NCBI GenBank assembly: GCA_964636545.1
Contig: CAZWSR010000001.1
Span: 80,007 to 144,006 of the forward strand
Reading direction: 5' to 3'
DNA length: 64,000 nt
Origin: Candidatus Undinarchaeota archaeon
Lineage (GTDB): Archaea > Undinarchaeota > Undinarchaeia > Undinarchaeales > UBA543
Part shown: piece by piece, positions 984-55,603 of the stretch
Layout of the letters: each line of letters starts with the position of its first letter
Position numbering within the stretch: the stretch's first letter is position 1
Notes under the pieces: model-generated
What the model saw: only the letters and a program-made list of their open reading frames with translations
What the model was told of the DNA's origin: nothing
Databases searched by the model: none
Translations under genes and position numbers: made by a program

Positions 984-1063
984 TTTCACCCCTGTAAATT
1001 TCTTGCAGAAGCAGATAAGCTTAAATACAATTATCCTCAAGCCAACATCAAGGTGAAATAAAA

Positions 1064-2194: not shown

Positions 2195-2227
2195 GGTTCA
2201 TTAATAAGAAGGGAGGGAGATTTTAGT

Positions 2228-3957: not shown

Positions 3958-4454
3958 AATTTTGCTTCTCTTTCTTGAACAAAACCGTAATGCCGTAGAA
4001 CATCTCTTAATTCGCGATTATTGTTGTAATGCTCATTAACACCTTTTAGAATTGAATCCAAATCTACAAAAACTAATTTTCCTCGTTCTTTTTTGTATTC
4101 TTCATAAGGCGTTCCACTTGGAGTAATTACAAACAAGTCATCGCGCTCTGGAACAAATATTTTTGTTTTTGCCATTTGCGCAGCATATTCAGAATAATTA
4201 TCAATATCAATTTTCTTGATGAATGAATTGGCGTCGTGTTCAATTACAAAGATTTTCTTAACAATTTCATCAGGTAATTCGCATTCAAGAATAACAGCAG
4301 CTCGTACACTGTAACCAATTGGAACATCAATATCAACGCCAATTTGTTTTTTAGTAAAATTCTGGTGCTCTGCCTGAAACAATGCACCTAACATCTGTTC
4401 TCTGTGCTCTTTCTGCATTCCCATAAATTTTTTCTTGTCGATAATCATTATCAT
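3954..4454 (-). CDS. hypothetical protein
   Basis: 166-aa ORF with GGGGAG SD 9 nt upstream of the ATG. No recognisable motif. Confidence 0.5.
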   Translation of the reverse strand: MIMIIDKKKFMGMQKEHREQMLGALFQAEHQNFTKKQIGVDIDVPIGYSVRAAVILECELPDEIVKKIFVIEHDANSFIKKIDIDNYSEYAAQMAKTKIFVPERDDLFVITPSGTPYEEYKKERGKLVFVDLDSILKGVNEHYNNNRELRDVLRHYGFVQEREAKF

Positions 4455-4522
4455 AAAGTATTAATACTCCCCTATTTAAAAATTTGTTGTTCTTAGAATT
4501 TGTTGGGGGAGCGTATGCTATA

Positions 4523-6100: not shown

Positions 6101-6163
6101 CATACCTCATAAACTCACCCCAGTTGGTGAAATTGTATAAACCCCAAATGCACCCGCTCTTTT

Positions 6164-6415
6164 ATGCATTCAGACATACAGAAAGCAATACTCAGGAAAC
6201 TGTACATGCTTGACTACTGGGGAGGAAGGCACACTTCTATTGACAATCTGCAAAAAGGTTTTGAAGGGCACTTGAAAGGGTTGGTAAAGAAAGAAGCAAA
6301 AGAGCTGCTTAAACTAGGATTAATTCTCTGCAAACCGAAGCCAGACAGTTTACATGTTTTCCTGAATCCAAGGCGGGTTGAAGAGATAAGGAGGATAGTT
6401 GCGACAATAAAATGA
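6164..6415 (+). CDS. hypothetical small protein (possible winged-helix)
   Basis: 83-aa ORF whose stop overlaps the next ORF by ATGA (operon-like). Confidence 0.4.
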   Translation: MHSDIQKAILRKLYMLDYWGGRHTSIDNLQKGFEGHLKGLVKKEAKELLKLGLILCKPKPDSLHVFLNPRRVEEIRRIVATIK

Positions 6416-6792
6416 CCATTACAGAAACGAAACACATATATACCAAAATAGAGGAAGATAATAGCATGGAAGATCAAACTCTTTTCGTAAAAGTGATGGG
6501 AGCGTATCCAATAATCAAAGTCCTAGACTTCCTGATAATGTTTCAGGATTTTGACTACTCACTTTCAGATATTTGCAAGAACGCTGGTGTTGGATGGAGT
6601 ACTTTGCACAGGTTCTGGCCTCAATTGGAAAAATATGAATTAGTGAAAAAGACCAGGGAGGTCGGAAATGCGAATATGTACAAACTGAACACTGAGAACG
6701 AGATTTCCAAACAGATAATGCAACTGAACTTGACAATTTGTGAGAAATTTGGAGGACCTGAGAAGCAGAGAATAGAAAAGGTTGTTAAGTGA
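6412..6792 (+). CDS. winged-helix DNA-binding protein
   Basis: HTH-like SLSDICKNAGVGWSTLHRFWPQLEKYELVKKTRE followed by a wing VGNANMYKL. Confidence 0.5.
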   Translation: MTITETKHIYTKIEEDNSMEDQTLFVKVMGAYPIIKVLDFLIMFQDFDYSLSDICKNAGVGWSTLHRFWPQLEKYELVKKTREVGNANMYKLNTENEISKQIMQLNLTICEKFGGPEKQRIEKVVK

Positions 6793-7113
6793 TTATTTTC
6801 TCCTCTTTTCTAATTCTCCTATTATTTCACTCAATTTTATATCTTTCCCAGTGAGTTGAACCATAACAAAATACAGTAAATCCGCTGTTTCTTCTATTGT
6901 TCTCTGCCTCCCTTCTTTTCATTTTAATCTCCTACAGTTCTTTGAAAGAACCACTCCGTCAAGAAACTCTGAATTTTTCAAATAAGCAACACCGTTATCT
7001 AGTACTACAGAAACTGCATTAGAAATTCCTAGTTTTTTGCGAATAGAAAAAGGCACAACTAATCTAAACTTGTTGTCCAGTTTGCAGACAAATGTGAAGG
7101 CAATCCCTTCTTT

Positions 7114-8436
7114 TCATTTTAGTAACCTCTTGTCTGATTTTCCCACTATATTTAACTTGCTGATAATCTGGTCAATTGAAAGAAGTTCTTGTTCGCCAGT
7201 TTCCATGTTTTTCAATGCGTATTTCTTTGCCTTAATTTCCTTTTCACCAATTATAACAACAAATGGAATTCCACTTGAGTTTGCAAAATCCAGATTCTTT
7301 GAAATACTTCTTGCTTTTGTATCAAAATCAGTATTGATTCCAGCTTTTCGAAGCTGCTGAGCAATTTCAATTGCTTTCTCATTACAATTTGGGAAATAAC
7401 ATACAAGTGCTTTGATTGCTCCTGATTTCTTTAATTTTCCAACTTGCTCAAGAACTTGAACTAAACGATCAATTCCAATTGAAAGACCTGTAGCTGGAAT
7501 TTTTTCTCCACCAGCAAGCGAAACTAAATTGTCAAACCGTCCGCCACCAGTAATTGAACCAATTTTCGCATCCTTTGCTTTGAATTCATAAACCATTCCA
7601 GTGTAATAAGCTAGTCCACGAGCCATGCTCAAATTCAATCTAAGATAATCAGAAATTCCATATGACTTTGCTAATTTGAAAAATTCTTCTAATTCAGCTA
7701 GTCCTTCTTTTGCAATATCATTCTTTGCAATATTTTTGGCTGTTTTCAGAACTTCAGTTGGTTTTCCTTCTGCAAGAAGTGCATTCAAAAGATTCCTACC
7801 CTTTTCTTCATCAAGTTTCTTGTCTTTCATTTCAGCAATAACTGCATCTTCTCCAATTTTGTCAAGCTTGTCAATGCATCTAAGTAAGTTTGGAACTTCT
7901 TTTTCAGTAAAACCATAATCAAGTGCAATTCCTTCAACAAGCTTTCTGTTATTTATGTCAACATAAAATTCTTTGAAATCTAATTCAAGCATTACATTAG
8001 TTGCGCAAGCAACAGCTTCCAAATCTGCTTCTACACCTTCTGCACCGAATGTATCAATATCTGCTTGCCAAAATTCTCTGTACCTTCCAGCTTGTGGCCT
8101 CTCGTATCTCCAAACCGGACTGATTATGAATCTCTTGAATGGTTTTGGTAATTGTGAATTATTTGCAACTAAACGTGAAGTTGGAACTGTTTGGTCAAAT
8201 TTCATTCCAAGCATTCTGCCGCTCTGATCTTTTAATGAAAAAATTTCTTTAGCAACTTCTTCTCCACCACCAGACTTTGCAGTAAGCAAACTTAAATTCT
8301 CAAGCGCTGGTGTCTGTATTTCGCGGAAACCGTATTTGGAATAAACAGTTCTGATAGTGTCGATTACATACCTGCGCTTTTCCATGTCCTCTGGTAAGAA
8401 GTCACGCATTCCTCGTGGTGTTTCAAATTTAGGCAT
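7114..8436 (-). CDS. hisS: histidyl-tRNA synthetase
   Basis: MPKFETPRGMRDFLPEDM... with class II aaRS motifs. AGGAGG SD is 7 nt upstream of the ATG at 8436. The track ORF extends upstream into the tRNA gene. Confidence 0.9.
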   Translation of the reverse strand: MPKFETPRGMRDFLPEDMEKRRYVIDTIRTVYSKYGFREIQTPALENLSLLTAKSGGGEEVAKEIFSLKDQSGRMLGMKFDQTVPTSRLVANNSQLPKPFKRFIISPVWRYERPQAGRYREFWQADIDTFGAEGVEADLEAVACATNVMLELDFKEFYVDINNRKLVEGIALDYGFTEKEVPNLLRCIDKLDKIGEDAVIAEMKDKKLDEEKGRNLLNALLAEGKPTEVLKTAKNIAKNDIAKEGLAELEEFFKLAKSYGISDYLRLNLSMARGLAYYTGMVYEFKAKDAKIGSITGGGRFDNLVSLAGGEKIPATGLSIGIDRLVQVLEQVGKLKKSGAIKALVCYFPNCNEKAIEIAQQLRKAGINTDFDTKARSISKNLDFANSSGIPFVVIIGEKEIKAKKYALKNMETGEQELLSIDQIISKLNIVGKSDKRLLK

Positions 8437-8440
8437 TTTT

Positions 8441-8477
8441 CCTCCTGTTAGCTGATAGCTGCCAGCTGTAAGCTGAA
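8441..8477. repeat. family-A tRNA-flanking octamer-word element (CAGCTAAC/TAGCTGAT words)
   Basis: Copies also at 8555-8600, 13217-13250, 18629-18686 and 55561-55596. Every copy abuts a tRNA gene. Confidence 0.6.
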
Positions 8478-8478
8478 A

Positions 8479-8554
8479 TGGGGCCCGGGCCGGGAATTGA
8501 ACTCGGGTCTGAAGATCCACAGTCTTCCATCCTAACCATTAGACTACCCGGGCC
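8479..8554 (-). tRNA. tRNA-His (GTG) with encoded G-1 and CCA
   Basis: Hand-folded: G-1, acceptor GCCCGGG/CCCGGGC, anticodon stem GAAGA/TCTTC, loop CTGTGGA, T-loop TTCAATT, discriminator C, CCA present. Confidence 0.85.
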
Positions 8555-8742
8555 AAATATATAGCTATCAGCTACCTGCTTGCAGCTAACAGAAATAGAA
8601 ACTTTCCTACTACTTAAAACTTTGTCAAAACTAAAACTAGACGAACTTCCTTGTTCAACAATGAAGGCAATCCCTTCTGTTCATCATAGTAGTGACATAT
8701 GCCATATTGGTAGTATATAAAGTTTGTTATGTTGGTTAAGGC

Positions 8743-8793
8743 GTCAGCCCTCGGCCCTCAGGTCCTGACTGCTGATGGCTGATACCTGACACC
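8743..8793. repeat. family-B GC-rich element GTCAGCCCTCGG...GCTGATGGCTGATACCTGACACC
   Basis: Four copies (8743-8793, 11508-11558, 21456-21519, 31453-31502), each within a few nt of a stop codon. Internal GTCAG/CTGAC inverted repeats. Confidence 0.6.
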
Positions 8794-9585: not shown

Positions 9586-10362
9586 TTAGATCATCACTTC
9601 AACAAACGCGCCAATTACAATTAGAACTAACGCTACCATGAACATTCCCATTGAGTCAAACATTATACGCTCCGCTGTTTGCTTCAAACGCTCACGCTCG
9701 TGCAGCACCAAGATGGATATCAACCCGCCTGAAATAGCTGCGAAAAAGAACGCAATAAATTCCATTCCTGTGTGAGGGATGAATGCAATAAAGGACGTTA
9801 ATTTTCCAAAACTGCCAATGAAAACACCGAGTACAGATGCGTTCCATGCAAGCAAGAGAATTGAACCACTACCATACAATAATGAAAGCACCATACAAAC
9901 AAACACGACTTTAAGATTATTAAGAAGAATTGGCATGAACATATTCATGTGAGAACCAGAAAATTGGCCAAGCATTCCACCAGAACCGCCACCGAAAACT
10001 GCTAGCTGTTTGCTGAAAATCAAGTTTTTCATGAAGATTGGAAGAATCATGTACCAAAGCATGTATGCTGCAGTCATTCCAATGAAAAACATTCCGTAAA
10101 TATAGATTATCCACAAGTTTCGCTTGAGAATTTGTTTTGAATTGGTAAGTCCAGCTCTTGCAATTTCCTCAAGGTCAAGGATTTTCTTGAAAAACGGAAC
10201 AGCAGAAATTGTTGTGAATAAAACACCGGCGATACTGGCGTCTTCTGTGAAAATTAAAGCTCCAACCCAAATACCAATAGTGGTTAGACAAACTCCAAGA
10301 AGTAGCGCATATAATGGACTTCGTTCAACCCATTCTGGTTTTATCAGGTTCTCAACAACCAT
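9586..10362 (-). CDS. SpoIIM/DUF95-family membrane protein
   Basis: Multi-TM protein with GGGSGGMLGQFSG and LAWNASVLGVFIGS..IPHTGMEFIAFFFAAISG, typical of COG1300. Confidence 0.65.
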   Translation of the reverse strand: MVVENLIKPEWVERSPLYALLLGVCLTTIGIWVGALIFTEDASIAGVLFTTISAVPFFKKILDLEEIARAGLTNSKQILKRNLWIIYIYGMFFIGMTAAYMLWYMILPIFMKNLIFSKQLAVFGGGSGGMLGQFSGSHMNMFMPILLNNLKVVFVCMVLSLLYGSGSILLLAWNASVLGVFIGSFGKLTSFIAFIPHTGMEFIAFFFAAISGGLISILVLHERERLKQTAERIMFDSMGMFMVALVLIVIGAFVEVMI

Positions 10363-11490: not shown

Positions 11491-11651
11491 AAAACAGGTG
11501 TCAGCAGTCAGCCCTCGGCAGTCAGGTGCCTGACAGCTGATGGCCGATACCTGATACCTTTCACAAATTTAACCAACACTGACATATGTCATTACTAACA
11601 ACACATAAATACTCTATTTATGTATGGATTAGCTAAGGAGGATGATTAAAC

Positions 11652-13169: not shown

Positions 13170-13263
13170 TAAAGAGTAGGAGGGTTGGGACTTATTTAAA
13201 GTTTGTTGAAAAATATCTGATAGCTGACAGCTGGTAGCTGTAAGCTTTAGCCAATTTCAAAAG

Positions 13264-13340: not shown

Positions 13341-13449
13341 CGATGGTGTTTCCTGATGAACAAATTTCACACTTAACCAAGCGCGTTATAGCGGCGCAGC
13401 CGCATCTCATCCTCCGCGAGAAGGCGGAGCTACGAATACACCCCCAACT

Positions 13450-17149: not shown

Positions 17150-17206
17150 TGTACAGAGAAAGACTGATTTGGCTTTATAAAGTATTGCTAAAAAAAAATC
17201 TAAAGT

Positions 17207-17274
17207 GGAGCTGGGGCGCAGGGGCGCCGTGTTGTTTTTCGACTCTCCAGCCCTGCGGCTCTACGGTGCCCCAG
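17207..17274. repeat. family-C GC-rich element containing tandem GGGGCGCA octamers
   Basis: GGAGCTGGGGCGCAGGGGCGCCGTG...ACGGTGCCCCAG imperfect hairpin in a divergent promoter region. GGGGCGCA x3 recurs in frame in dtdA (40284-40316). Confidence 0.55.
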
Positions 17275-17316
17275 ACAATAGTATTTATAAACCAGTGACA
17301 GATACAAATTGAAGGA

Positions 17317-17817: not shown

Positions 17818-18117
17818 TCAACTGCATTTTTTTGAAAGAATATCATATGCCTTCAGTGCATCTTCTTTTTCAACAATGAAAATTGTATCAGTGTAGCAGG
17901 ACAGAACTTCAACTATATTTATTCCATTCTCAGCTAGGAGGCCTGTTGTGTATTGCACAAAACCGTGAGTGGATTCCACATTTGAATTTGGAATGATTGG
18001 TCTTGCTGATGAAGTTTGCACATCAAGTTCCATAATGCCGCAGAAAAAGAACCCTGACCCACTGGAAGTTCTGCATGCAAAAACCACTGAAGTACATAGT
18101 TTGCTATTCCAGAACAT
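17818..18117 (-). pseudogene. ORF whose C-terminal 40 aa form an ACT-domain fragment (aspartokinase-like); likely gene remnant
   Basis: ...GLLAENGINIVEVLSCYTDTIFIVEKEDALKAYDILSKK. The N-terminal part is antisense to the argH fragment. Confidence 0.3.
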
Positions 18118-18385
18118 GATGACTCTGAAATCACTGACGTCTGGGTATCACAAAGATATGCAACAGACGAAAAAAACAGTGATAAATGGATTTAGTATTG
18201 TTTTAAAGAGCTTGAAAGTGATGGAAATTGTTGTGAAAGGAATTACAGCAAATAAGGAAAAAATGCAGGAAATAATTGAAAAAAGCGGATGCTTAGCCAC
18301 AAACGAGGTAGATAAGTTGGTGTTGGAAGGAATTCCGTTCAGACAAGCGTACAAGCAGGTAAGAATAGCTTATAACAACAAATAA
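17969..18385 (+). pseudogene. argH: argininosuccinate lyase C-terminal fragment (about 138 of about 460 aa)
   Basis: Fumarate-lyase signature SSIMPQKKNPD plus LATNEVDKLVLEGIPFRQAYKQV. An in-frame stop lies immediately upstream and there is no room for the N-terminal two thirds. Confidence 0.6.
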
Positions 18386-18414
18386 AAAGCACCTGTTTTA
18401 GAATAATGTGCTAT

Positions 18415-18626
18415 GGGCCTATAGCCTAGTCTGGATAAGGCGGCAGCCTTCTAACGGCCGCAAAATCGGCCGGCGCTTTGCGCTGCATTCAGCAGAACCT
18501 CAACAGGTTAAGCTGAAGCAGCGTGGCTCGCACACATAGGTGAAAAACCAAATATGTGCGCGCTCGCCGGACCTTTGAGGTTTGGAAGAGAGCTGCAAAT
18601 CGGGGGTTCAAATCCCCTTGGGCCCA
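18415..18626 (+). tRNA. tRNA-Arg (TCT) with about 137-nt intron (about 18454-18590) at canonical 37/38
   Basis: 5' exon GGGCCTA-TA-GCCT..AGGC-G-GCAGC-CTTCTA. 3' exon A-GCTGC-AAATC-GGGGG-TTCAAAT-CCCCT-TGGGCCC-A. Intron GAAG pairs with exon CTTC (BHB-compatible). Confidence 0.75.
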
Positions 18627-18698
18627 TCTCAGCTAACAGCTACCTGCTAACAGCTAACCTGTTCTGGTAGCTGGAAGCTGTAACCAACAATTAGCATT

Positions 18699-18775
18699 GG
18701 GCCTGTAGTGTAGCTTGGATATCACGGGAGGCTTCGGACCTCCAAAGCGGGGTTCAAATCCCTGCAGGCCCACCA
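18699..18775 (+). tRNA. tRNA-Arg (TCG), CCA encoded
   Basis: GGGCCTG/CAGGCCC acceptor, anticodon stem GGAGG/CCTCC, loop CTTCGGA, T-loop TTCAAAT. Confidence 0.85.
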
Positions 18776-18815
18776 ATACACCCATTTAAAAACTAATCAA
18801 ACATAGAGGTTAAAT

Positions 18816-20561
18816 ATGGTAACAGATCCTTGGCAAAAAGCAAGAGAAGATGTCACAAAAGCAGTGGCAGAAGTTATACCTCAATTGGCAATCCCAAAAA
18901 CACGATTAAAGAAAATAAAGCTGGTAAACCACATTGATGAGCCACCTAGCTACAAAATGGGAGACCTTGCTTGTAGTATTTCATTTCCATTTGGAAAAAT
19001 AAAAAAAGTCAGTCCAAGGAAGATTGCAGAAGATATTATTGACAAAATTCACAGACCACGCAGTGTTTACTTAATAAAACTGGCAGGTGCATATGTTAAT
19101 TTTTTCCTGAAATTCGGAGAATTTGCAAAAGCGGTTGTTACTGAAGCATCAAAAGATACTTTCGGAAAAGGCGAGAAAAAGAAAGAGAAAGTAATGATTG
19201 AGTACAGTCAGCCAAATCCACTAAAAGCATTCCACATCGGACATGTTAGAAATACTGTTCTTGGAGAAAGTTTGAGCAGAATAATGAAAGAAGCTGGATT
19301 TGATGTTATTCAAGCAAATTTGTTTAATGATATTGGAATGCATGTTGCAAAAACACTGTGGTGCTACAAGAAATACCACGATGGAGAAAAGGCGCACACT
19401 AATGTTTCTAAATGGATTGGAACAATTTACAGAGATGCTTGCAAAAAAATTGAAGAAGATCCTAAAAACAAAGAAGAAGCAGATGAAATTCTAAAACATT
19501 TAGAAGCGCAAGATAATGAGGAAATCACTAAATTGTGGAAGCAATTCAGAAAATGGAGTGTTGATGAGTTCAAGGAAATTTACAAAGAATTAGATGCGCA
19601 CTTTGATGTTGACTTTTATGAAAGCGATTTGAAACCAAGAGGAAGAGAACTTGTTGAAGAGCTGAAGAAAAAGAAAATCGCGAAAAAGAGTAAGGGCGCC
19701 ATTATTATTGATTTGAAAAAAGATGACTTACCAGTTTGGTTGTTGCTGAAAAGTGACGGAACAGCACTTTATTCAACACAAGACCTTGCACTTGCTGAAG
19801 AAAAATTCAAGAAATTCAAAATTGACAAGTCAATTTATGTTGTTGGGTCAGAGCAAAGATTGCATTTCCAGCAATTGTTTAAGACATTACAGAAAATGGG
19901 TTTCAGAAAAGCAAAGAAATGTTACCATTTGGCATATGCTTTGGTTGCTTTGCGAAGTGGAAAAATGTCATCCAGAGAAGGAACCGCAATATTATATTCT
20001 GATTTGAAACATGAAATGCTCAAAAAAGCAATGAATGAAGTTGCTGAGAGAAACCCTGAAATGGCTGTAAAAACTCAGAACGAACTTGCTGAAAAGATAA
20101 TGATGTCTGCTATGAAATACAGCATGCTTAATGTTGGAAACAACAAGACAATCTTTTTTGACTGGGACACTGCACTTGAATTTGAAGGTAATACTGGACC
20201 GTACTTGCAATATGCAACTGTTCGTGCAAAAAGAATTTTGGAGAAAGCTGGCAAGAAACCAACACTAGCTGGGATTCAGTTCAAGTTATTGGATAGTAAG
20301 GATGCACAGCGCTTAATAAAACAAATAGCAAAACTGCCATCTGTGATAAGAGAAGCTGCAGAAACATACCAACCACATATTATTTCAAATTACGCATATT
20401 CTTTAGCTGACAAATTCAGCACATTTTACACAACAAATCCAGTTATTGAGGCAGAAACACCTGAACTAAAAGCAGCTCGGATTGCACTAGTAAACGCAAC
20501 ATATAAAACCCTCCAGAAAGCCCTTTATCTCCTTGGAATTGAAGAGCCAAAGAGGATGTAG
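18816..20561 (+). CDS. argS: arginyl-tRNA synthetase
   Basis: Class I HIGH motif (AFHIGHVRNT) and a DALR-type C-terminal region, 581 aa. Confidence 0.9.
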   Translation: MVTDPWQKAREDVTKAVAEVIPQLAIPKTRLKKIKLVNHIDEPPSYKMGDLACSISFPFGKIKKVSPRKIAEDIIDKIHRPRSVYLIKLAGAYVNFFLKFGEFAKAVVTEASKDTFGKGEKKKEKVMIEYSQPNPLKAFHIGHVRNTVLGESLSRIMKEAGFDVIQANLFNDIGMHVAKTLWCYKKYHDGEKAHTNVSKWIGTIYRDACKKIEEDPKNKEEADEILKHLEAQDNEEITKLWKQFRKWSVDEFKEIYKELDAHFDVDFYESDLKPRGRELVEELKKKKIAKKSKGAIIIDLKKDDLPVWLLLKSDGTALYSTQDLALAEEKFKKFKIDKSIYVVGSEQRLHFQQLFKTLQKMGFRKAKKCYHLAYALVALRSGKMSSREGTAILYSDLKHEMLKKAMNEVAERNPEMAVKTQNELAEKIMMSAMKYSMLNVGNNKTIFFDWDTALEFEGNTGPYLQYATVRAKRILEKAGKKPTLAGIQFKLLDSKDAQRLIKQIAKLPSVIREAAETYQPHIISNYAYSLADKFSTFYTTNPVIEAETPELKAARIALVNATYKTLQKALYLLGIEEPKRM

Positions 20562-20572
20562 ATTCCAAAACT

Positions 20573-20647
20573 ACCACCGTAGCCTAGTTTGGATAAGGCG
20601 TTTCCCTCCTAAGGAAAAGGTCGAGAGTTCAAATCTCTCCGGTGGTG
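20573..20647 (+). tRNA. tRNA-Arg (CCT)
   Basis: ACCACCG/CGGTGGT acceptor, D-stem GCCT/AGGC, anticodon stem TTTCC/GGAAA, loop CTCCTAA, T-arm GAGAG-TTCAAAT-CTCTC. Confidence 0.8.
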
Positions 20648-20697
20648 CTCTTTATTTTAAAATTAAACAGGACGAACCAATTTCTACAGAATTGTTT

Positions 20698-20820
20698 AAG
20701 CCCCTTCGCGTAAGCGAACGCGATTAATCTTCAGCGAAAAAACAAAGATATATCCTGAAGATTCATCGTGTAGGGGCTTCATGCAGTGCGCGCTGCACTC
20801 TGGAGCGCCACTCAAGAACA
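20698..20820. ncRNA. candidate structured RNA (GC-rich, nested helices), identity unknown
   Basis: 8-bp helix AAGCCCCT/AGGGGCTT enclosing a 9-bp helix AATCTTCAG/CTGAAGATT and a CGCG helix, then a TGCAG-TGCGCG-CTGCA hairpin. GC far above the local background. Confidence 0.25.
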
Positions 20821-20915
20821 AATTAACCAACTTCACCAATTCAAATATCAGCAGAGTACCAGAACATTAATAAAGTTTGGAAAACAAAATAGTGGAATAA
20901 TAGGGGGCAGTAACC

Positions 20916-21449
20916 GTGGTATTGAAAGGACACACATTGGACATCATATCTTTAGTGCTAATTTTCGTTCTTTCACGGTTTGTAATGCCAGAACACACTC
21001 GTCTTTTGATCTTGATAATTTTTATATGTATTTTAAGTAGATCAAATTTTGTTTATCATTCAGTAAATCTAGAGATTCATAGTATTTTGATGGTGTTTAT
21101 CGCAATAACATATGGATTCTGGCCTTGTTTTTTTATTGCGATAATGTCAACGTGGCCAGCAAAAAGTTTGAGTGGATGGATGGGAATTTACAATCCAATA
21201 TTGACAGGAATGGATACAATACACATGGTTTTTGTTGCGTTATTTGCTAGCTTGCTATCGATTCACACTTATTTCATACCTGCTATGCTGATACTATTCT
21301 TTGCTGAATTTATTAGAGAAGGATTTAGATTCTTCACATTCCATGAAAACTTTATTAAATACACAATAATGGGTACATTTTTCATGATAATGTTTTATTT
21401 AGCAATGAAGAACATCCCACATATTTTCATAAATTTCATTGGTGGATAA
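20916..21449 (+). CDS. membrane protein, unknown (GTG start in track)
   Basis: Hydrophobic 177-aa ORF. Confidence 0.5.
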   Translation: MVLKGHTLDIISLVLIFVLSRFVMPEHTRLLILIIFICILSRSNFVYHSVNLEIHSILMVFIAITYGFWPCFFIAIMSTWPAKSLSGWMGIYNPILTGMDTIHMVFVALFASLLSIHTYFIPAMLILFFAEFIREGFRFFTFHENFIKYTIMGTFFMIMFYLAMKNIPHIFINFIGG

Positions 21450-21542
21450 AGACAGGTAACAGCCCTGAGCCCTCAGGTGTCAGGTCGTCCTGACTGCTGA
21501 TGGCTGAATGCTGACACCCTAACCAATTTCAAAAAAGATGAG

Positions 21543-21616
21543 CAGGCCCGCCGGAATTTGAATCCGGGTCTGCGGCTCCGCAAGCCACTATGATATCCAA
21601 GCTACACTACGGGCCT
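21543..21616 (-). tRNA. tRNA-Arg (GCG)
   Basis: AGGCCCG/CGGGCCT acceptor, anticodon stem GTGGC/GCCGC, loop TTGCGGA, T-arm CCGGA-TTCAAAT-TCCGG, discriminator G. One D-stem mismatch. Confidence 0.7.
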
Positions 21617-21709
21617 AATAGCAGGACAATAAGAGTAGAGAGGTTATTTAATAATGTTGTCGTGTAGCGAACAGTTAACTAAATAACATAGGACCTGCAT
21701 TATCTTTTT

Positions 21710-22564
21710 ATGGTCAAGAGAATATTAGAAGATTACTGGATTCCTATTGAGAATCCACTAATTGGTAAAGTTGCTGCTGCTTTTATTGAAGCAATCACTT
21801 GGTCACCCATTAATCCCCATGGTTTGAAAGATATACGGCATCCTGTTTACATATACAAAAATCTTAATGTAAATAAAGGAAAATCATATCATGATGGCAG
21901 GTATGCTGAGAACAAAAAATTCTTCCCAATTAAGTTTCAAAAAATAATGGAACGTAAGCGTTTCAATCTGATTTTTTTAATAATTGCTGAAAACAATCAG
22001 CAATATGTGATAAAACCTTTCCAATACTCACCTGAAATGGATGAAGAATGGAAAATTGCAAACGAAATGACTACTGAAAATATGGGACCTAAATTAATTC
22101 CTCATAAATTCAAGTGCAACATAGGCAGATTTCATGGAAATCTTATTGTTGAGTCTTGTTTATCAAGACCAGGGGGTTGGAGACCTGCTTATCTTGTGGA
22201 AAAACACATACAGAATCACAAGTGGTTTATATCTCCGTTTGCCAATCTTATTAAAAAATTGCATCAGAAAGGTATATTCTTTTTTGAGGATTTTTACACA
22301 CACTTGTTTGTTAACATAATGACCCATGACCTGAAGCTTGTTGATTTTGGAATGTCTTTTTATCCCCCTGAGGAGGAAAAAACAAAACGATTTGATATTG
22401 AAATTGGACTTGCCCTTGATAATTTAAAAAGATCTAGATTCAAACCAGCATATCAACTCGCTTTTTTGAAAATATATCAAAAAAAGTTCAGGCAAATTAA
22501 AAAAACTCTAAGAACAGATACAATTATTCTTGAAGGGAAAGAATATAAGTTTAAACGAGGATAA
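21710..22564 (+). CDS. hypothetical protein with degenerate protein-kinase-like (Bud32/RIO/KdoK-like) C-terminal motifs
   Basis: LHQKGIFFEDFYTHLFVNIMTHDLKLVDFGMS resembles LH.xGIxHGDLxxxNxxx...xLIDFGLS, with the catalytic His and Gly replaced. Confidence 0.5.
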   Translation: MVKRILEDYWIPIENPLIGKVAAAFIEAITWSPINPHGLKDIRHPVYIYKNLNVNKGKSYHDGRYAENKKFFPIKFQKIMERKRFNLIFLIIAENNQQYVIKPFQYSPEMDEEWKIANEMTTENMGPKLIPHKFKCNIGRFHGNLIVESCLSRPGGWRPAYLVEKHIQNHKWFISPFANLIKKLHQKGIFFFEDFYTHLFVNIMTHDLKLVDFGMSFYPPEEEKTKRFDIEIGLALDNLKRSRFKPAYQLAFLKIYQKKFRQIKKTLRTDTIILEGKEYKFKRG

Positions 22565-24766: not shown

Positions 24767-27700
24767 CTAATCTGCGTAGTATTCTTTTAATGATTTGATT
24801 CCAAAACTTTTTTCTCGGTTTCTTTTGATTGCCTCAAGTACAATTTTTGCTCCAGCCAATGTTGTGATACATGGAACTTTCTTGAAAATACAGGCATGTC
24901 GTATCTTGTATCCGCCCCTGCTTGCGACTTCTCCACGAGTTGGCGTATTTATTACAAGCTGGATACTATCATTATTTATTACATCAACAACATTTGGAGA
25001 ACCTTGACTTGGTTTAAGGAGTTTCTGATTCTTGATACCATCCACATGAAGTATTTTTGATGTGTGACCAACTGCGGCAATTTTAAAACCAAGATCTTTG
25101 AATCCTTTAGCAACAGCATAGATGTGTTCCTTGTCCTGATCTCGAACTGCAAAAAATACTCGTCCAGAATCAGGAAGCTTAGTTCCAGCACCAAGCTGGG
25201 CTTTGTAAAATGCTTCTGCGAAATTATCTGCAATACCCATACTCTCCCCTGTGCTCTTCATTTCAGGCCCAAGACGAGAGTCAGAACCTGGAATTTTGTT
25301 AAATGGGAAAACAATAGACTTTACAGAAACATGTTTTGGTGTTTTTTCAGTGTAGCCGAGCTCTTTCAGGGTTTTTCCAGCAAGAACCTTAGCTGCTATT
25401 TTTGCAATTGGGAGATTTGTAGCTTTGCTGATGAATGGAACAGTCCTACTGCTTCTTGGATTTGCCTCAAGCACATAAACAGTATCACCTTTTACTGCAT
25501 ATTGCATATTCATTAATCCAATTACATTCATCTCAAGTGCGAGTTTTCTTGTGTAATCTTTTATTTTATTTACAATATCAGTGCCGAGGGTTTGTGGAGG
25601 AACAACACATGAGGAATCGCCAGAATGAATACCTGCTTCTTCAATATGCTCCATGATCCCGCCAATTAAAACATCCTTGCTATCGCAAACACAATCCACA
25701 TCAACTTCAATTGCGTTCTGGAGAAACTTGTCAATTAAAATTGGCTGATTTTCTGAAACACTAACAGCTTCTCTGACATAGGATTCTAACTGAGAATCTT
25801 CGTGAATGATTTCCATTGCTCGGCCACCAAGAACATAACTTGGACGAACCAGAACAGGATAACCCAGCCTTTCAACTATTTTCTGAGCATCTTCTAAACT
25901 GCGTGCAATGCCGTTTTCAGCTTGTGGAATGTTTAGTTTAGTGAGAATTTGTGTAAATTTATCCCTGTCTTCGGAAAGATCCATATCTTCAGGAGAGGTT
26001 CCAATAATATTGACTCCTGCTTTTTTCAGTGGCAAGGACAAGTTAACTGCAGTTTGACCACCGAATTGAGTTATGACGCCGAATGGTTTTTCCTCGCGAA
26101 CCACATTCATCACATGCTCAAAATCAACTGGCTCAAAATAGAGTTTATCAGCAGTGTCATAATCAGTGCTGACGGTTTCAGGATTGTTGTTGAGAATTAT
26201 TGTTTCAATACCTTCTTCTCGCAATGCCCAAACTGCATGAACAGTGCAATAATCAAATTCTATTCCCTGGCCGATTCGGATTGGTCCTGCGCCAAGAATT
26301 AACACTTTTTTATTATCAGTGTGCCGTGTTTCTGTTTCAGTCCCTGATGTACTGTAGTAATATGGCGTTTTTGATTCAAACTCTGCAGCACAAGTATCAA
26401 CCATTTTGAAACAAACATTCTTTTTTTCTTTAGGAGAATCAATAATATTCTTTATTTTTTCAAGGAACCATAAATCAATATTTGTTAGCTCGTGGATTTC
26501 TTCAAGAGTAAAACCAATTCTTAAAGCATCTGCAATATAGAAGAGCCGCTTGTGAGTGGGTGTTCTTAAAAGTCTCTTGAGAAGTCGAGGATCTGTTATA
26601 CCGGTTGTTTCAAAACCTTTTCTTTTTATGTCAAGACTGCAAATTGCTTTCAAAAGAGATTCTTCAAAAGTTCGACCAATTGCCATAACCTCGCCAGTAG
26701 AACGCATTTCAGTACCGAGCTCGCATTTTGCAAGACGAAACTTTTCAAATGGCCAGCGAGGAATTTTGACAATAATATAATCAAGCGCTGGCTCAAAGCT
26801 GGCAGAAGTGTCCTGAGTGATTGGGTTTGGGATATCTGTGAGAGTTTTCCCAATTGCGATTTTTGTTGTTATGAGTGCGATTGGATAGCCAGTTGCTTTG
26901 CTTGCAAGAGCAGAAGATCTGGAAACACGCGGATTAACTTCAATTATGCAATATTCATTGCTTTTTGGATTAAGACCATATTGAATATTGCATCCACCTT
27001 CCACCCCAAGGGCTCGGATTATTTTAATGGATGCAGACCTGAGCATCTGGTATTCATCATCACTCAAAGTTTGCGACGGAGCAACAACAATACTTTCACC
27101 AGTGTGGATACCCATTGGATCAAAGTTTTCCATGTTACAGATCGTAATGCAATTGTCATCAGAATCTCGCATAACTTCATACTCTACTTCTTTCCAGCCA
27201 GAAACACACTTTTCAATTAGAACCTGACTTATTCTGCTGAGAGTAATTCCTTTTTTAGCTATTTTTTCCAGATCAGTGATTGTGTGTGCGATTCCCCCAC
27301 CAGATCCCCCAAGTGTGTAGGCTGGGCGAATAACAACTGGATACCCTATTTCGCTTGCATACACTTTTGCATCCTCAACAGTATTAACTGCTTTTGACGG
27401 GAGAACAGGTTCTCCGATTTCAATTAGCAGTTTCTTGAATTCATTCCGGTCCTCACACAATTTTATTGCTGAAATTGGAGTTCCAAGAACAGCCACATTG
27501 TGTTTTTTCAGAATTCCTTTTTCCCCAAGCTCAGATACAAGATTCAAAGCAGTTTGACCACCAAGACTTGACAAAATTCCATCTGGTTTTTCCTTTTCAA
27601 TTACTTTTTCAACAAACTCAAGAGTCAGTGGTTCAATGTAAACTGAATCTGCCATGTCTGAATCTGTTTGGATTGTTGCTGGATTGGAATTAATCAGAAC

Positions 27701-27823
27701 TGTTTTGATTCCTTCTTCTTTCAGAGCTTTGAGAGCCTGTGAACCAGAGTAGTCAAATTCTGCAGCTTGACCGATTATGATTGGTCCAGAACCTATTAGG
27801 AGAACTTTTTTAATTTGTTTCAT
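24767..27823 (-). CDS. carB: carbamoyl-phosphate synthase large subunit
   Basis: 1018 aa with two ATP-grasp halves (LIGSGPIIIGQAAEFDYSGSQA / LILGAGPIRIGQGIEFDYC) and an MGS-like C-terminus. Confidence 0.95.
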   Translation of the reverse strand: MKQIKKVLLIGSGPIIIGQAAEFDYSGSQALKALKEEGIKTVLINSNPATIQTDSDMADSVYIEPLTLEFVEKVIEKEKPDGILSSLGGQTALNLVSELGEKGILKKHNVAVLGTPISAIKLCEDRNEFKKLLIEIGEPVLPSKAVNTVEDAKVYASEIGYPVVIRPAYTLGGSGGGIAHTITDLEKIAKKGITLSRISQVLIEKCVSGWKEVEYEVMRDSDDNCITICNMENFDPMGIHTGESIVVAPSQTLSDDEYQMLRSASIKIIRALGVEGGCNIQYGLNPKSNEYCIIEVNPRVSRSSALASKATGYPIALITTKIAIGKTLTDIPNPITQDTSASFEPALDYIIVKIPRWPFEKFRLAKCELGTEMRSTGEVMAIGRTFEESLLKAICSLDIKRKGFETTGITDPRLLKRLLRTPTHKRLFYIADALRIGFTLEEIHELTNIDLWFLEKIKNIIDSPKEKKNVCFKMVDTCAAEFESKTPYYYSTSGTETETRHTDNKKVLILGAGPIRIGQGIEFDYCTVHAVWALREEGIETIILNNNPETVSTDYDTADKLYFEPVDFEHVMNVVREEKPFGVITQFGGQTAVNLSLPLKKAGVNIIGTSPEDMDLSEDRDKFTQILTKLNIPQAENGIARSLEDAQKIVERLGYPVLVRPSYVLGGRAMEIIHEDSQLESYVREAVSVSENQPILIDKFLQNAIEVDVDCVCDSKDVLIGGIMEHIEEAGIHSGDSSCVVPPQTLGTDIVNKIKDYTRKLALEMNVIGLMNMQYAVKGDTVYVLEANPRSSRTVPFISKATNLPIAKIAAKVLAGKTLKELGYTEKTPKHVSVKSIVFPFNKIPGSDSRLGPEMKSTGESMGIADNFAEAFYKAQLGAGTKLPDSGRVFFAVRDQDKEHIYAVAKGFKDLGFKIAAVGHTSKILHVDGIKNQKLLKPSQGSPNVVDVINNDSIQLVINTPTRGEVASRGGYKIRHACIFKKVPCITTLAGAKIVLEAIKRNREKSFGIKSLKEYYAD

Positions 27824-28928
27824 GTTTCTCCATTATTTTTACAAGCCTGTCAAATTCATCGAGCTTGTCGTATGGCCCAGGTCTTGCTTCTGGGTGGTAT
27901 TGTGTTGAAAAAATTGGAAGGGATTCGTGCTCTATTGCTTCTACAGTTTGATCATTGCAGTCAGTTTCAGTTACAGTAAGGCCTGTTCCTTTTAGAGAGT
28001 CTGCATCAACACAGAAACTGTGGTTTTGGGAAGTTACAAAAACTTTTCCAGTTTTGAGATTTTTTACAGCGTGATTTCCGCCGCGATGACCGAATTTGAG
28101 TTTGAAATTCATTCCACCACACGCAGCCGCAATTATCCCATTGCCAAGACAGATTCCATTGAGTGGAACTTTTCCAACAAGCTCCTTAACAGTTTTGATT
28201 GTGTAGGTTATCATTTCAGGGTTTCCAGGACCATTAGAAATGTGAACGCACGTTGGTTTGAGTGATAGAATTTTCTCTGCGCTTGTTTCAGGATGAACTC
28301 GTGTGACTTCAATATTTCTCTTAACCATTTCCCTGACAATGCTGAGTTTGACACCGCAGTCAATCATTACAAGTTTGTGCTTGTTGCCCTGGCCGTGGAT
28401 TATTTCTTTTTTGTCTTTGTACTCTACTTCTGCATAATCCTTCACAAGGTCCGTGTTTGCATAGTCAAATGATTTTATTTCTTCAATAATTTTTGTAATG
28501 TCTGCTGTTGGATCCTGTATTATTTTGCCAACCATTGTGCCTTTGTTTCGGATTTGGATTGTAAGAGCTCTGGTGTCAATACCATGAATTCCAGGAACAT
28601 CATGTTCTTTTAAAAATTCATCTAATGATTTGACTGACTTGTAGTGAGAGGGAGTGTGACATAAATTATTAACAATCATTCCGCTAGCCCATACTTTGCT
28701 CCCTTCAAAACTTTCTTCATTAATGCCATAGTTGCCAATAAGTGGATAAGTTTGTGTTAGAATTTGTCTGTGGTATGATGGATCTGTTAGAGATTCCTGA
28801 TAACCAGTCATGGCTGTGTTAAAAACAACTTCTGCAACAATATCCTTGTGAGCACCAAAAGGGTGACCCTCGTAGACTGTCCCGTCTTCCAGCACTAACC
28901 GTATCGTATCTCCCATTAATCTCTCCAA
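27810..28928 (-). CDS. carA: carbamoyl-phosphate synthase small subunit (glutamine amidotransferase)
   Basis: VVFNTAMTGYQESLTDPSY...TYPLIGNYGIN N-terminal domain and a GATase C-terminal domain. Overlaps the carB start. Confidence 0.9.
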   Translation of the reverse strand: MERLMGDTIRLVLEDGTVYEGHPFGAHKDIVAEVVFNTAMTGYQESLTDPSYHRQILTQTYPLIGNYGINEESFEGSKVWASGMIVNNLCHTPSHYKSVKSLDEFLKEHDVPGIHGIDTRALTIQIRNKGTMVGKIIQDPTADITKIIEEIKSFDYANTDLVKDYAEVEYKDKKEIIHGQGNKHKLVMIDCGVKLSIVREMVKRNIEVTRVHPETSAEKILSLKPTCVHISNGPGNPEMITYTIKTVKELVGKVPLNGICLGNGIIAAACGGMNFKLKFGHRGGNHAVKNLKTGKVFVTSQNHSFCVDADSLKGTGLTVTETDCNDQTVEAIEHESLPIFSTQYHPEARPGPYDKLDEFDRLVKIMEKHETN

Positions 28929-28993
28929 TAATTAGGTATAACCTTAAGGCGTTCTCCCTTTAAAATGTTTTGGTTATTTTGAGACAACTGTCT

Positions 28994-29926
28994 TTATAAT
29001 TTGTCAAGTAAGAATAGCATAATTGCTTTTTGAATATGCAAGCGGTTTTCTGCTTGATCAAATACAATGCTTTTTGAACCGTCAATTACATCAGCTGCTT
29101 GCTCATAACCGCGCTTTGCAGGTAAGCAGTTCATGAAAATCACATCATCTTTTGCTAAGTTTACTAATTCAGTTGTGACTTGGTATGGTTTGAAAGTTTC
29201 AACTCGTTTCTGCTCTTCCTTTTCTGGAATTCCGTAGCTCATCCAAGAGTCAGTGTAAATCACATCAGCATCTTTTGCAGCTGCTTGTGCATCATGAGAA
29301 ACATAAATATTTGCCTTGCTTGTTTCTGAAATCTTTGCAATTTCATCAAGAACAGCTTGTTCTGGTTCGTATTCTGAACCTTCTGGTCCACATACTGCCA
29401 TTTCCCAGCCAAGTAGTGCAGACAAACGCATTAAATCATAAGTTACATTATTGTGACAGTCGCCAAAGTAAGTCATTTTACGAGGGTTAAGGTCGCCTTT
29501 TTTCTCCTTTATTGTCTGAAAGTCGCACAGAATCTGGCAAGGGTGTGCAAAATCGTCAAGTGCATTGATTACAGGGATTGTTGAGTGTTCTGATAACTTG
29601 ACCAGGTCTTCTTTCTTGAAAACGCGGGCCATCATAATATCAGCATATCGTGAAATACAGCCTGCAGTATCCTCAATGTTTTCCTTTTTGCCAAGTGGTG
29701 AATCCTTAATTGAGTAAAAAATACCGTGACCACCGAGCTGAGTCATGCCAACTTCAAAAGAAACGCGAGTCCTGAGTGACGGTTTTTCAAAAAGCATTAA
29801 CAAGGTTTTGTCTTTCAAATCGCTTGCGTGTGCATCAATATTTGCCTTGATTTCAATAGATTTATCTATGATGTTCAGGCATTCTTCTTTAGTAAAATCA
29901 GTAATTTTTAGTAAATGTCTAACCAT
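28994..29926 (-). CDS. argF: ornithine carbamoyltransferase-family enzyme
   Basis: SLRTR, HPCQ, DSWMSYG and NCLPAKRGYE match OTC motifs STRTR/HPxQ/DxWxSMG/HCLP, with S-L-RTR and N-CLP substitutions. Confidence 0.8.
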   Translation of the reverse strand: MVRHLLKITDFTKEECLNIIDKSIEIKANIDAHASDLKDKTLLMLFEKPSLRTRVSFEVGMTQLGGHGIFYSIKDSPLGKKENIEDTAGCISRYADIMMARVFKKEDLVKLSEHSTIPVINALDDFAHPCQILCDFQTIKEKKGDLNPRKMTYFGDCHNNVTYDLMRLSALLGWEMAVCGPEGSEYEPEQAVLDEIAKISETSKANIYVSHDAQAAAKDADVIYTDSWMSYGIPEKEEQKRVETFKPYQVTTELVNLAKDDVIFMNCLPAKRGYEQAADVIDGSKSIVFDQAENRLHIQKAIMLFLLDKL

Positions 29927-31422: not shown

Positions 31423-31577
31423 CTTGGATAACGAATTTAGTTACTTTGGTATCGGCTGTCAGCCCTCAGCAGTCAGGGCCTGATGGCTGAATGCTGACAC
31501 CTTAACCAATAGGGCAAACCTTTATATACCAAATACACTACTCCAAAGTAGTGACAAACGTCACTGGTGGTTAAAAA

Positions 31578-34851: not shown

Positions 34852-35069
34852 AAATATATAGAAAAAAACAAAATTTATATTGGATATACTCATGGGAAAA
34901 ATAGGGAAAAAGGAAAAACTGAATTAGAACGACAAGTAAACAAGTGGGTAGATGTGGCAGGAAATATAGGAAGAGCAATCTTAATAGAAAAACCAGAATT
35001 AATTTTGGAATGATCTCACCCCGGGCTTCACGATAATTATATAAGTTCAGATTCTAAGAGGTGTTTGTT

Positions 35070-55560: not shown

Positions 55561-55603
55561 CTCATCAGCTATCGGCTAACAGCCAACAGCTATCAAACTT
55601 GTT

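Follow-up and report, generated by a model that had tools for sequence, protein, structure and literature searches.

Introduction

How does a whole set of arginine tRNA genes come to lie around the gene of the enzyme that charges these tRNAs, and what has kept it there? In prokaryotes the position of a tRNA gene is usually unrelated to that of the gene for its charging synthetase. The locus that raises the question lies in a 64,000-nt stretch of DNA from a Candidatus Undinarchaeota archaeon (assembly GCA_964636545.1, contig CAZWSR010000001.1, positions 80,007 to 144,006), which was analysed as a whole and is called the window here; all coordinates refer to it unless a relative is named. Within 3.2 kb (18415-21616) four tRNA-Arg genes surround argS, the gene for arginine--tRNA ligase (ArgRS). 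A first reading of the sequence (the original prediction) had drawn attention to this cluster and to a tRNA-His gene beside hisS, and had suggested co-regulation or co-mobilisation of an arginine-decoding module.

The analysis shows how the cluster is built, how improbable it is by chance, how well it is conserved, and that its context is chromosomal and non-mobile. We consider it likely that the locus represents a vertically inherited neighbourhood of the Undinarchaeota type, in which the tRNA-Arg set flanks argS amid arginine and carbamoyl-phosphate genes and is expressed unit by unit. An incomplete search of the literature found no earlier description of cognate tRNA/aminoacyl-tRNA synthetase (aaRS) adjacency, of tRNA-Arg/argS linkage, or of a whole isoacceptor set held at a synthetase gene.

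Results and discussion

The tRNA-Arg/argS cluster

ARAGORN at default settings and Rfam agreed on seven tRNA genes in the window. The gene for tRNA-Arg(UCU) was missed both by default ARAGORN and by Rfam at gathering thresholds; with introns allowed, ARAGORN called tRNA-Arg(tct) at 18414-18628 with an intron of 137 nt, the Rfam tRNA model (RF00005; gathering score 29) in E-value mode covers 18415-18626 and reaches 45.9 bits, and the spliced exons give a clean, normal cloverleaf with a UCU anticodon. Direct reading agrees, so that the intron-containing tRNA-Arg gene of the original prediction is confirmed. All four tRNA-Arg genes and tRNA-His score above 29, and the anticodons assigned by ARAGORN (tct, tcg, cct and gcg for arginine, gtg for histidine) are those that had been claimed; the four genes around argS are borne out by both programs. 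The argS gene itself is full-length (493 bits against the TIGR00456 cut-off of 261.65; PF03485, PF00750 and PF05746 all found). Its ATG follows tRNA-Arg(UCG) after 40 nt, its stop codon precedes tRNA-Arg(CCU) by 11 nt, and a further 893 nt lie between tRNA-Arg(CCU) and tRNA-Arg(GCG); all spacings that had been reported, including those at argS and between tRNA-His and hisS, are correct. With a G+C content of 0.37-0.39, the cluster does not differ from its flanks or from the average of the window. The coordinates of all features are collected in Table 1.

Table 1. Features of the tRNA-Arg/argS cluster and of other parts of the window treated in the text
Feature	Position	Strand	Evidence
hisS, histidine--tRNA ligase, 440 aa from ATG at 8436	7114..8436	-	TIGR00442; Pfam
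tRNA-His to hisS spacer, CAGCTNN heptads then GGAGG	8437..8478	-	pattern search, direct reading
tRNA-His(GUG), 42 nt upstream of hisS	8479..8553	-	ARAGORN; Rfam 61.1 bits
argH remnant (native 3' third of argininosuccinate lyase)	17969..18385	+	TIGR00838 positions 258-386 of 455, E=2e-36
tRNA-Arg(UCU) 5' exon, positions 1-37	18415..18453	+	ARAGORN intron mode, Rfam, direct reading, spliced cloverleaf
Intron of tRNA-Arg(UCU), 137 nt, canonical 37/38 site	18454..18590	+	ARAGORN intron mode; direct reading
tRNA-Arg(UCU) 3' exon	18591..18626	+	ARAGORN intron mode, Rfam, direct reading, spliced cloverleaf
Heptad-repeat spacer (CAGCTNN)n	18630..18680	+	Tandem Repeats Finder; pattern search
tRNA-Arg(UCG), CCA encoded	18699..18775	+	ARAGORN; Rfam 56.4 bits
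TATA-like box TTTAAAAA, about 27 nt before argS ATG	18785..18792	+	direct reading
argS, arginine--tRNA ligase, 581 aa	18816..20561	+	TIGR00456; Pfam Arg_tRNA_synt_N, tRNA-synt_1d, DALR_1
tRNA-Arg(CCU)	20573..20648	+	ARAGORN; Rfam 67.2 bits
GC-rich structured spacer, insert relic at tRNA-Arg(CCU) 3' end	20649..20915	+	folding, homology to L175 insert
Open reading frame, 177 aa, membrane-like, function unknown	20916..21449	+	open reading frame list; no Pfam match
Palindromic GC-rich intergenic repeat, between 177-aa open reading frame and tRNA-Arg(GCG)	21451..21520	.	GC-island scan; four-copy alignment
tRNA-Arg(GCG)	21542..21616	-	ARAGORN; Rfam 52.3 bits
carB, carA, ornithine carbamoyltransferase	24767..29926	-	ornithine carbamoyltransferase TIGR00658 361 bits

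By standard wobble the anticodons UCU, UCG, CCU and GCG read all six arginine codons, and all six are in use among the genes of the window. The set had been said to decode most of the arginine codons; that the cluster tRNAs decode arginine codons stands, "most" understated the coverage, and the count of four genes applies to the 64-kb window. Undinarchaeota metagenome-assembled genomes (MAGs) range from 0.6 to 1.0 Mb (PMC7414124); in a genome of that size, five given genes would lie within 3.2 kb of each other with a probability of about 5e-10 to 4e-9, which rises to about 1e-8 to 7e-8 once 20 amino-acid families are allowed for. The clustering is real and lies far beyond chance.

Conservation among relatives

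At least 165 loci of ArgRS relatives from genome and metagenome collections, plus eight ArgRS loci from exact-protein look-ups, were scanned by intron-allowing ARAGORN and then partly curated by hand; single loci are cited by L-numbers. Where ArgRS is at least 52% identical to that of the window, all 15 loci listed carry a tRNA-Arg gene no more than 3.5 kb from argS; they represent 11 lineages besides the window, include Ca. Naiadarchaeum limnaeum and Undinarchaeales MAGs, and have at least two tRNA-Arg genes at argS in 12 cases by automatic calls alone. Below 52% identity, among the matches listed, a tRNA-Arg gene lies within 3.5 kb of argS in only 3 of 155 loci (other DPANN, Patescibacteria and Chloroflexi), always a single one. 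The claim that such cognate linkage is uncommon is therefore well founded.

Manual curation adds intron-bearing tRNA-Arg copies in L081, L166, L168 and L001. The programs had missed or misnamed tRNA-Arg(UCU) of L081 and L001, had called tRNA-Arg(CCU) of L168 "Gly", and had named one of the UCG, CCU and GCG genes of L166, all recovered by hand, "Phe". The order UCU - UCG - argS - CCU - GCG is complete in L084, L087, L174 and L166 and, once curated, also in L081 and L168, and Ca. Naiadarchaeum limnaeum (L170) has UCU, CCU and GCG within 2.4 kb of argS. The linkage is a trait of the clade, nearly always tight and occasionally loosened.

The best named ArgRS matches listed (53-56% identical) belong to Ca. 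Undinarchaeales, Undinarchaeota and Ca. Naiadarchaeum, and marine metagenomes hold ArgRS proteins 66-84% identical to that of the window. Together with the gene order around argS, these matches point to a marine DPANN archaeon of the Undinarchaeota type. As a separate observation, this ArgRS subfamily is common to DPANN, Patescibacteria and Anaerolineales (Chloroflexi) at about 38-45% identity, a shared distribution that suggests an old inter-domain transfer of argS. Among the loci listed, the carriers in Patescibacteria, Chloroflexi and other DPANN have no tRNA-Arg cluster.

The neighbourhood and its probable erosion

Flanking genes common to the window and its relatives are glmU, tmk, gdh, hisS, carAB and the gene for ornithine carbamoyltransferase (OTCase), in the common order hisS, a thioredoxin-reductase-like gene, gdh, tmk, glmU, argS, OTCase, which also holds for Ca. 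Naiadarchaeum limnaeum. The same chromosomal neighbours are kept even where ArgRS is only 53% identical. L084 and L166 carry intact argG-argH-carB or argG-argH-carA-carB immediately before tRNA-Arg(UCU); L175, with carB at that place, keeps the ancestral argG-argH-carAB block in part. In the window and in L081, carB-carA-OTCase stand downstream of the cluster on the other strand; a carbamate kinase gene is also carried by relatives. The recurring flanking genes and the intact argG-argH-carAB of relatives argue for a vertically inherited, amino-acid-themed neighbourhood that is partly eroded in the window lineage.

The argH remnant just upstream of the cluster, already recognised in the original prediction, documents this erosion. 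It scores below the full-length cut-off of TIGR00838, and argH sequence was sought in the frames upstream of 17969-18385 and not found. The intact ArgH of L084 (400 aa, 369 bits) ends at profile position 386, as the window fragment does, which identifies the latter as the native 3' third of argH and makes it a probable pseudogene with the 5' two thirds deleted. In the window lineage argG and the 5' two thirds of argH would have been lost by deletion, carAB would have moved to the other side and tRNA-Arg(GCG) would have been inverted, with the tRNA-argS core surviving. The inversion is seen in the window alone; close relatives have tRNA-Arg(GCG) on the argS strand. Between the UCU and UCG genes, L084, L174 and L175 carry an alaX-like editing-protein gene, and the 177-aa open reading frame (ORF) has counterparts of 175-178 aa at the same position in L081, L174 and L175, so that it moves with the cluster. 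No local rearrangement, be it the inversion, the insertions, the relocation of carAB or the deletion of argG/argH, has parted the tRNAs from argS.

At the position of the argH remnant L081 has a 249-aa LAGLIDADG-like ORF (6473-7222 of that locus) whose matches are all weak: one at E=4e-6 to the model of an ATPase with an intein, and a faint one to Pfam LAGLIDADG_3. The ORF runs into the first bases of tRNA-Arg(UCU) (7213-7319 of L081); a location inside the intron of that tRNA gene was considered and rejected, since the ORF ends at the tRNA 5' end and the only intron of this tRNA gene, in the anticodon stem, is 32 nt long.

A second cognate pair: tRNA-His and hisS

The original prediction had also placed tRNA-His(GTG) 42 nt upstream of hisS on the same strand, and this is correct. 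HisRS scores 404 bits against the TIGR00442 cut-off of 286.75, and HGTP_anticodon is found; identity as the HisZ paralogue was rejected, because the HisZ model reaches 221 bits, below its cut-off of 271.65. HisRS loci of relatives were gathered by a separate HisRS search (tblastn for hisS in the ArgRS loci gave no match). Upstream of hisS, tRNA-His stands at a distance of 42 nt in the window, 58 nt in L168, 72 nt in L171 and 105 nt in L172, and in the distant L173 tRNA-His adjoins a HisRS-like gene. Positions 637-1866 of L173 hold tRNA-His, a 380-aa HisRS-like protein without anticodon-binding domain (HisZ-like), a creatininase-family gene and hisS. In L172 the 5' end of tRNA-His is partially duplicated at about 2185-2210, and the actual tRNA gene follows about 135 nt downstream.

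Downstream of hisS, hisG-hisD-hisB follow in L171 (3873-6272) and L172 (4040-6290); their hisG is of the short form (185-196 aa), and no separate hisZ was seen beside it in either locus. The corresponding part of the window (1-7113) holds no his biosynthesis genes. The Arg and His blocks are parallel in that tRNA, synthetase and biosynthesis genes stand together and the biosynthesis part is lost in the window lineage. The absence of his genes and the loss of argG/argH suggest an ongoing loss of amino-acid biosynthesis there. Altogether the window has four aaRS genes, for HisRS, ArgRS, ThrRS (35061-36989) and Asp/AsnRS (48714-50021), and a cognate tRNA gene lies beside two of them.

Probable expression layout

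Every relative examined in this respect (among them L081, L084, L087, L166, L168, L169 and L174) has a TATA-like box 27-35 nt before the argS ATG. The box reads TTAATATATAAA in both L081 and L084, and TTTATAAG in both L168 and L169. Probably argS is transcribed from its own promoter into a leaderless or near-leaderless mRNA. At the other end, argS stop and tRNA-Arg(CCU) are 12, 10, 10, about 15, 0 and 2 nt apart in L081, L087, L174, L001, L168 and L169, so that, including the window, seven lineages have a junction of 0-16 nt. The 3' end of argS is free of TATA-like sequence, and a T-rich stretch, CTCTTTATTTT, follows tRNA-Arg(CCU). A gap of 0-16 nt leaves no room for a promoter, from which we infer a co-transcript of argS and tRNA-Arg(CCU).

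The spacer between tRNA-Arg(UCU) and tRNA-Arg(UCG), 72 nt of heptad repeats in the window and 9 nt in L081, has no TATA-like box either, and the two tRNAs probably form one transcript. The 42-nt spacer from tRNA-His to hisS likewise has no TATA-like box and carries GGAGG before the ATG, which points to co-transcription of this pair. By their spacers, argS with tRNA-Arg(CCU), tRNA-Arg(UCU) with tRNA-Arg(UCG), and tRNA-His with hisS may each share a transcript, whereas tRNA-Arg(UCG) and argS, with the conserved TATA-like box between them, probably do not. A single tRNA-tRNA-argS-tRNA operon was rejected on the grounds of this box and because tRNA-Arg(GCG) lies on the other strand. The co-regulation that had been proposed is plausible, judged from the spacers, for argS with tRNA-Arg(CCU) and for tRNA-His with hisS.

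The cluster would accordingly be read in three units. In the first, tRNA-Arg(UCU) and tRNA-Arg(UCG) would be made as a tandem tRNA transcript; in the second, argS would be transcribed from the TATA box in the 40-nt spacer with read-through into tRNA-Arg(CCU), and RNase P and RNase Z would release this tRNA and set the 3' end of the argS mRNA, as in "tRNA punctuation"; in the third, tRNA-Arg(GCG) would be expressed alone. The benefit may lie in a coupling of ArgRS dosage to its tRNA substrates in a very small genome. ArgRS is among the synthetases that require tRNA for amino-acid activation. Co-transcription, processing and selective benefit are here inferred from sequence. A T-box or other cis-regulatory RNA was not detected: Rfam at gathering thresholds finds tRNAs only in the whole window, and no credible family appears in 18380-18830 (E<=10) or in 20640-21720 (E<=5).

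Several points weigh against an inherited neighbourhood with unit-wise expression, or restrict it. Co-transcription is deduced solely from spacing and from missing TATA-like sequence. The gap before tRNA-Arg(CCU) is 40-59 nt in L084, L175, L166 and L002, with AT-rich boxes as possible promoters, so that the coupling of argS and tRNA-Arg(CCU) may be facultative, and it is 1.6 kb in L170; tight coupling is not universal. L167 shows tRNA-Arg(GCG) alone, 2.8 kb off argS. Other tRNAs of the window are followed on the same strand by non-cognate genes (tRNA-Pro by gdh, tRNA-Met and tRNA-Gln by ORFs of unknown function), and genome compaction may be part of the cause of the pattern. A T-arm motif scan, which interrupted T-arms would escape, found no tRNA near ThrRS or Asp/AsnRS; the linkage is thus not a genome-wide rule. 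Finally, a tRNA-Arg isoacceptor with CCG anticodon is often also present in archaea, and a fifth tRNA-Arg gene may lie elsewhere in the genome.

The intron of tRNA-Arg(UCU) and other interrupted tRNA genes

Exon 1 of tRNA-Arg(UCU) ends in CUUCUA and exon 2 starts with AGCUGC, which places the intron at the canonical site 37/38. The junctions form a motif like the bulge-helix-bulge of archaeal tRNA introns: a 4-bp helix CUUC/GAAG (C32-U-U-C35 with G-A-A-G at 18585-18588) with 3-nt bulges UA|A and AG|A, found likewise in L166 and L001. In the minimum-energy fold a multi-helix junction replaces the outer helix on the intron side, resembling a relaxed bulge-helix-loop form.

Homologues of the intron occupy site 37/38 in tRNA-Arg(UCU) of L166 (109 nt; 7373-7482), in tRNA-Arg(UCU) of L001 (112 nt; 5122-5231) and in tRNA-Arg(CCU) of L001 (84 nt; 7787-7865). 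The 137-nt intron has three hairpins, the first with a conserved CAAAnU loop, the second with conserved flanks C-A-UUC / GAA-G-C and the third GC-rich. In the alignment of these four sequences 98.9% of cells are paired, and compensatory changes occur in 9 of 23 pairs against 3.5 +/- 1.4 in shuffles, none of 500 shuffles matching this value; when pair partners are slid, 0-1 compensated pairs are left. The count comes from four sequences only and from a structure taken from the same alignment, and it spans lineages with ArgRS merely 53% identical. On this comparative evidence the intron is a conserved, covarying structured RNA.

The closest relatives do not share the long intron. tRNA-Arg(UCU) is intron-less in L084, L087, L174 and L175, and in L081 it has a 32-nt intron within the anticodon stem instead, a patchy distribution as expected from repeated loss or mobility. 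No Rfam family matches the intron even at permissive thresholds, and no C/D-box motifs were seen in it by eye. A covariance model built on it was run over the window and 30 loci without detecting another copy, and the intron is thus not a dispersed element.

A side observation concerns L166, a 66%-identity relative, in which all tRNA-Arg genes are interrupted (7334-7890 and 9775-10057). Its tRNA-Arg(UCG) has a canonical intron and a T-loop intron of about 100 nt, tRNA-Arg(CCU) a D-loop and a T-loop intron, and tRNA-Arg(GCG) a D-loop and a canonical intron; over 50 nt, the two D-loop introns agree at 92% of positions. Upstream of tRNA-Arg(UCG), the 5' end of this gene is repeated in two perfect tandem copies of 67 nt, and ARAGORN overlooks or misnames the tRNA-Arg genes of this locus (e.g. 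as "Phe"). Disrupted tRNA genes with non-canonical introns are a known trait of DPANN and have been blamed for incomplete tRNA sets (PMC5829648). For Undinarchaeota MAGs 13-21 tRNAs have been reported (PMC7414124), and interrupted tRNA genes probably explain these counts.

Rival origins of the cluster

The strongest competitor of vertical inheritance with a function is a neutral frozen accident, in which local duplication and anticodon change beside argS, in genomes that are rarely rearranged, left an adjacency without function. The tRNAs do look related: tRNA-Arg(UCU) and tRNA-Arg(CCU) are 82% identical over the 5' 33 nt, and UCU/UCG (74%) and UCG/GCG (72%) exceed the 46-62% of other tRNA pairs. 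In L001 the UCU and CCU genes have the same intron type at the same site, and the CCU and GCG D-loop introns of L166 are nearly identical. These similarities fit local duplication, or gene conversion between adjacent genes. The clade also generally keeps the synteny of the wider region well. Duplication accounts for the togetherness of the tRNAs, however, and not for their site at the cognate synthetase gene. The surroundings have been rearranged repeatedly, yet the tRNAs stay at argS in 15 of 15 clade loci, the 0-16 nt junction of argS and tRNA-Arg(CCU) is kept across ArgRS identities of 53-100%, and an independent cognate pair, tRNA-His/hisS, is conserved too. We regard a mere accident as unlikely.

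More doubtful still is an extended version of the functional reading, in which Arg and His "amino-acid units" would be made from shared precursors. Cutting out tRNA-Arg(CCU) would mature the 3' end of the argS mRNA, and cutting out tRNA-His the 5' end of the hisS mRNA; ArgRS could bind the tRNA still joined to its own mRNA and thereby exert feedback on its own expression; and the 109-137-nt UCU intron, once released, could persist as a non-coding RNA, stable and perhaps circular, that has its own function. Taken jointly, these propositions are a speculation that we would not expect to hold in full.

Far less probable is the mobile or horizontally transferred arginine-decoding cassette implied by the suggestion of co-mobilisation, in which argS and its tRNAs would move together, as does the pylT-pylS cassette or, in giant viruses and phages, a set of tRNA and aaRS genes. 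tRNA genes are classic integration sites, and tRNA-Arg(CCU) has indeed received inserts: that of L175 (5874-6052) is bounded by a 29-nt and that of L174 (5835-5924) by a 27-nt direct repeat of the tRNA end, an integration signature, and the two inserts are unlike each other. The window keeps a relic at 20649-20915, homologous to the L175 insert and without the distal repeat, which folds with z=-4.0 (0 of 200 shuffles fold as well) and has no credible Rfam match at permissive thresholds; L081 has no insert at this tRNA 3' end. To this may be added the LAGLIDADG-like ORF that abuts tRNA-Arg(UCU) in L081, and the presence of the ArgRS subfamily in Patescibacteria and Chloroflexi at about 38-43% identity. 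The att-like repeats, however, bound inserts of 90-170 nt and not the module. No repeats bound the whole cluster, no integrase, transposase, plasmid or viral gene lies in or beside it, its G+C content is unremarkable, the chromosomal neighbours are the same in all relatives, and where this type of ArgRS occurs in bacteria or in other DPANN, no tRNA-Arg gene adjoins it. Co-mobilisation is not supported by our data.

An assembly or annotation artefact, i.e. a chimeric metagenomic contig or false tRNA calls, is a negligible prospect: the DNA is probably of metagenomic origin and one of the four tRNAs was found in a non-default mode only, yet each tRNA was called by two independent methods and the same arrangement occurs in independently assembled ENA, JGI and NCBI contigs.

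Repeats and other sequence features

The (CAGCTNN)n heptads occur 18 times in the window as pattern matches against 0.23 expected, at 8443-8475, 8562-8587, 13215-13247, 18630-18680 and 55566-55591, and also at 21490-21515. They are almost confined to sense-strand 3' trailers of tRNA-His, tRNA-Pro, tRNA-Arg(UCU) and tRNA-Met, and link each such tRNA to the next gene on the same strand. Relatives have other repeat units at equivalent places, TGGTATCT in L171 and TTGAAAACC in L081.

The palindromic GC-rich repeat next to tRNA-Arg(GCG) is one of four copies (8730-8788, 11493-11553, 21451-21506 and 31447-31501), each about 55-60 nt long and partly palindromic, with the consensus ...CAGGTGTCAGC.GTCAGCCCTCAGCAGTCAGG.CCTGA.GGCTGA..GCTGACACC... 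At least three copies directly follow gene ends; the repeats are possibly terminator-like or miniature mobile elements.

Elsewhere in the window a D-aminoacyl-tRNA deacylase-like ORF (40146-40967) contains perfect tandem repeats, GGGGCGCA x4.1 and ACCCCAA x4.4, at 40284-40316 and 40663-40693. GC-rich islands stand out from AT-rich intergenic DNA at 17202-17282 (between glmU and a 166-aa membrane ORF) and at 13376-13445 (upstream of tRNA-Pro). The islands may be small RNAs or small ORFs; the corresponding sites of relatives are occupied by an 83-aa ORF and a Sec61-beta gene.

Comparison with known systems

In the pylT-pylS(-pylBCD) arrangement, tRNA-Pyl lies beside the pyrrolysyl-tRNA synthetase gene and pyrrolysine biosynthesis genes. 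This is the nearest analogue of the Undinarchaeota blocks: here, too, a cognate tRNA adjoins the synthetase gene near biosynthesis genes of the same amino acid, argG/argH/carAB with argS and, in relatives, hisG-hisD-hisB with hisS. Unlike pylTS, an orthogonal pair with one tRNA for the 22nd amino acid in a horizontally spread cassette, the present blocks serve canonical amino acids, with a four-tRNA set in the case of arginine, and are vertically inherited and chromosomal. The pylT-pylS cassette is the topic of PMC12626013.

Mixed transcripts of tRNA and mRNA form a second group. A bacterial example is the thrU-tyrU-glyT-thrT-tufB operon of E. coli. As in such operons and in the tRNA punctuation of mitochondrial transcripts, hardly any spacer separates tRNA and coding sequence (0-16 nt from the argS stop), and cleavage by RNase P and RNase Z would free both the tRNA and the mRNA end. 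In the mitochondrial and E. coli units the tRNAs are non-cognate, whereas those flanking argS are substrates of the encoded ArgRS. PMC5474008 discusses tRNA punctuation and PMC1920247 t-elements.

The UCU gene resembles the disrupted tRNA genes of Thermoproteales, Nanoarchaeota, ARMAN and other DPANN (PMC5829648) in its 37/38 intron, 4-bp helix and two 3-nt bulges, and the relatives do so in having D-loop, T-loop and anticodon-stem introns, at most two per gene and near-identical between tRNAs. It differs from the usual archaeal tRNA introns in its unusual length (109-137 nt) and its conserved, compensated hairpins, and from the tRNA-Trp intron guide RNA in the C/D-box motifs that inspection by eye did not reveal. 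The 27-29-nt repeats of the tRNA-Arg(CCU) end in L174 and L175 recall site-specific integration into tRNA genes, and L166 and L172 contain partial 5' duplicates, the former of tRNA-Arg(UCG) and the latter of tRNA-His; PMC9897764 deals with fragments of tRNA genes in prokaryotes. Unlike usual tRNA-integrating elements, the inserts are 90-170 nt long, GC-rich and structured, carry no integrase, and resemble miniature elements or relics.

Conclusions

Our analysis describes a phylum-level clade in which a whole isoacceptor set stays with the gene of the synthetase that charges it, beside biosynthesis genes of the same amino acid. The interrupted tRNA genes found on the way also make clear that tRNA censuses of Undinarchaeota genomes need manual curation. 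Together the Arg and His blocks offer a testable case for a coupling of tRNA and synthetase dosage in ultra-small genomes, and likewise for a tRNA-punctuated maturation of mRNA in archaea.

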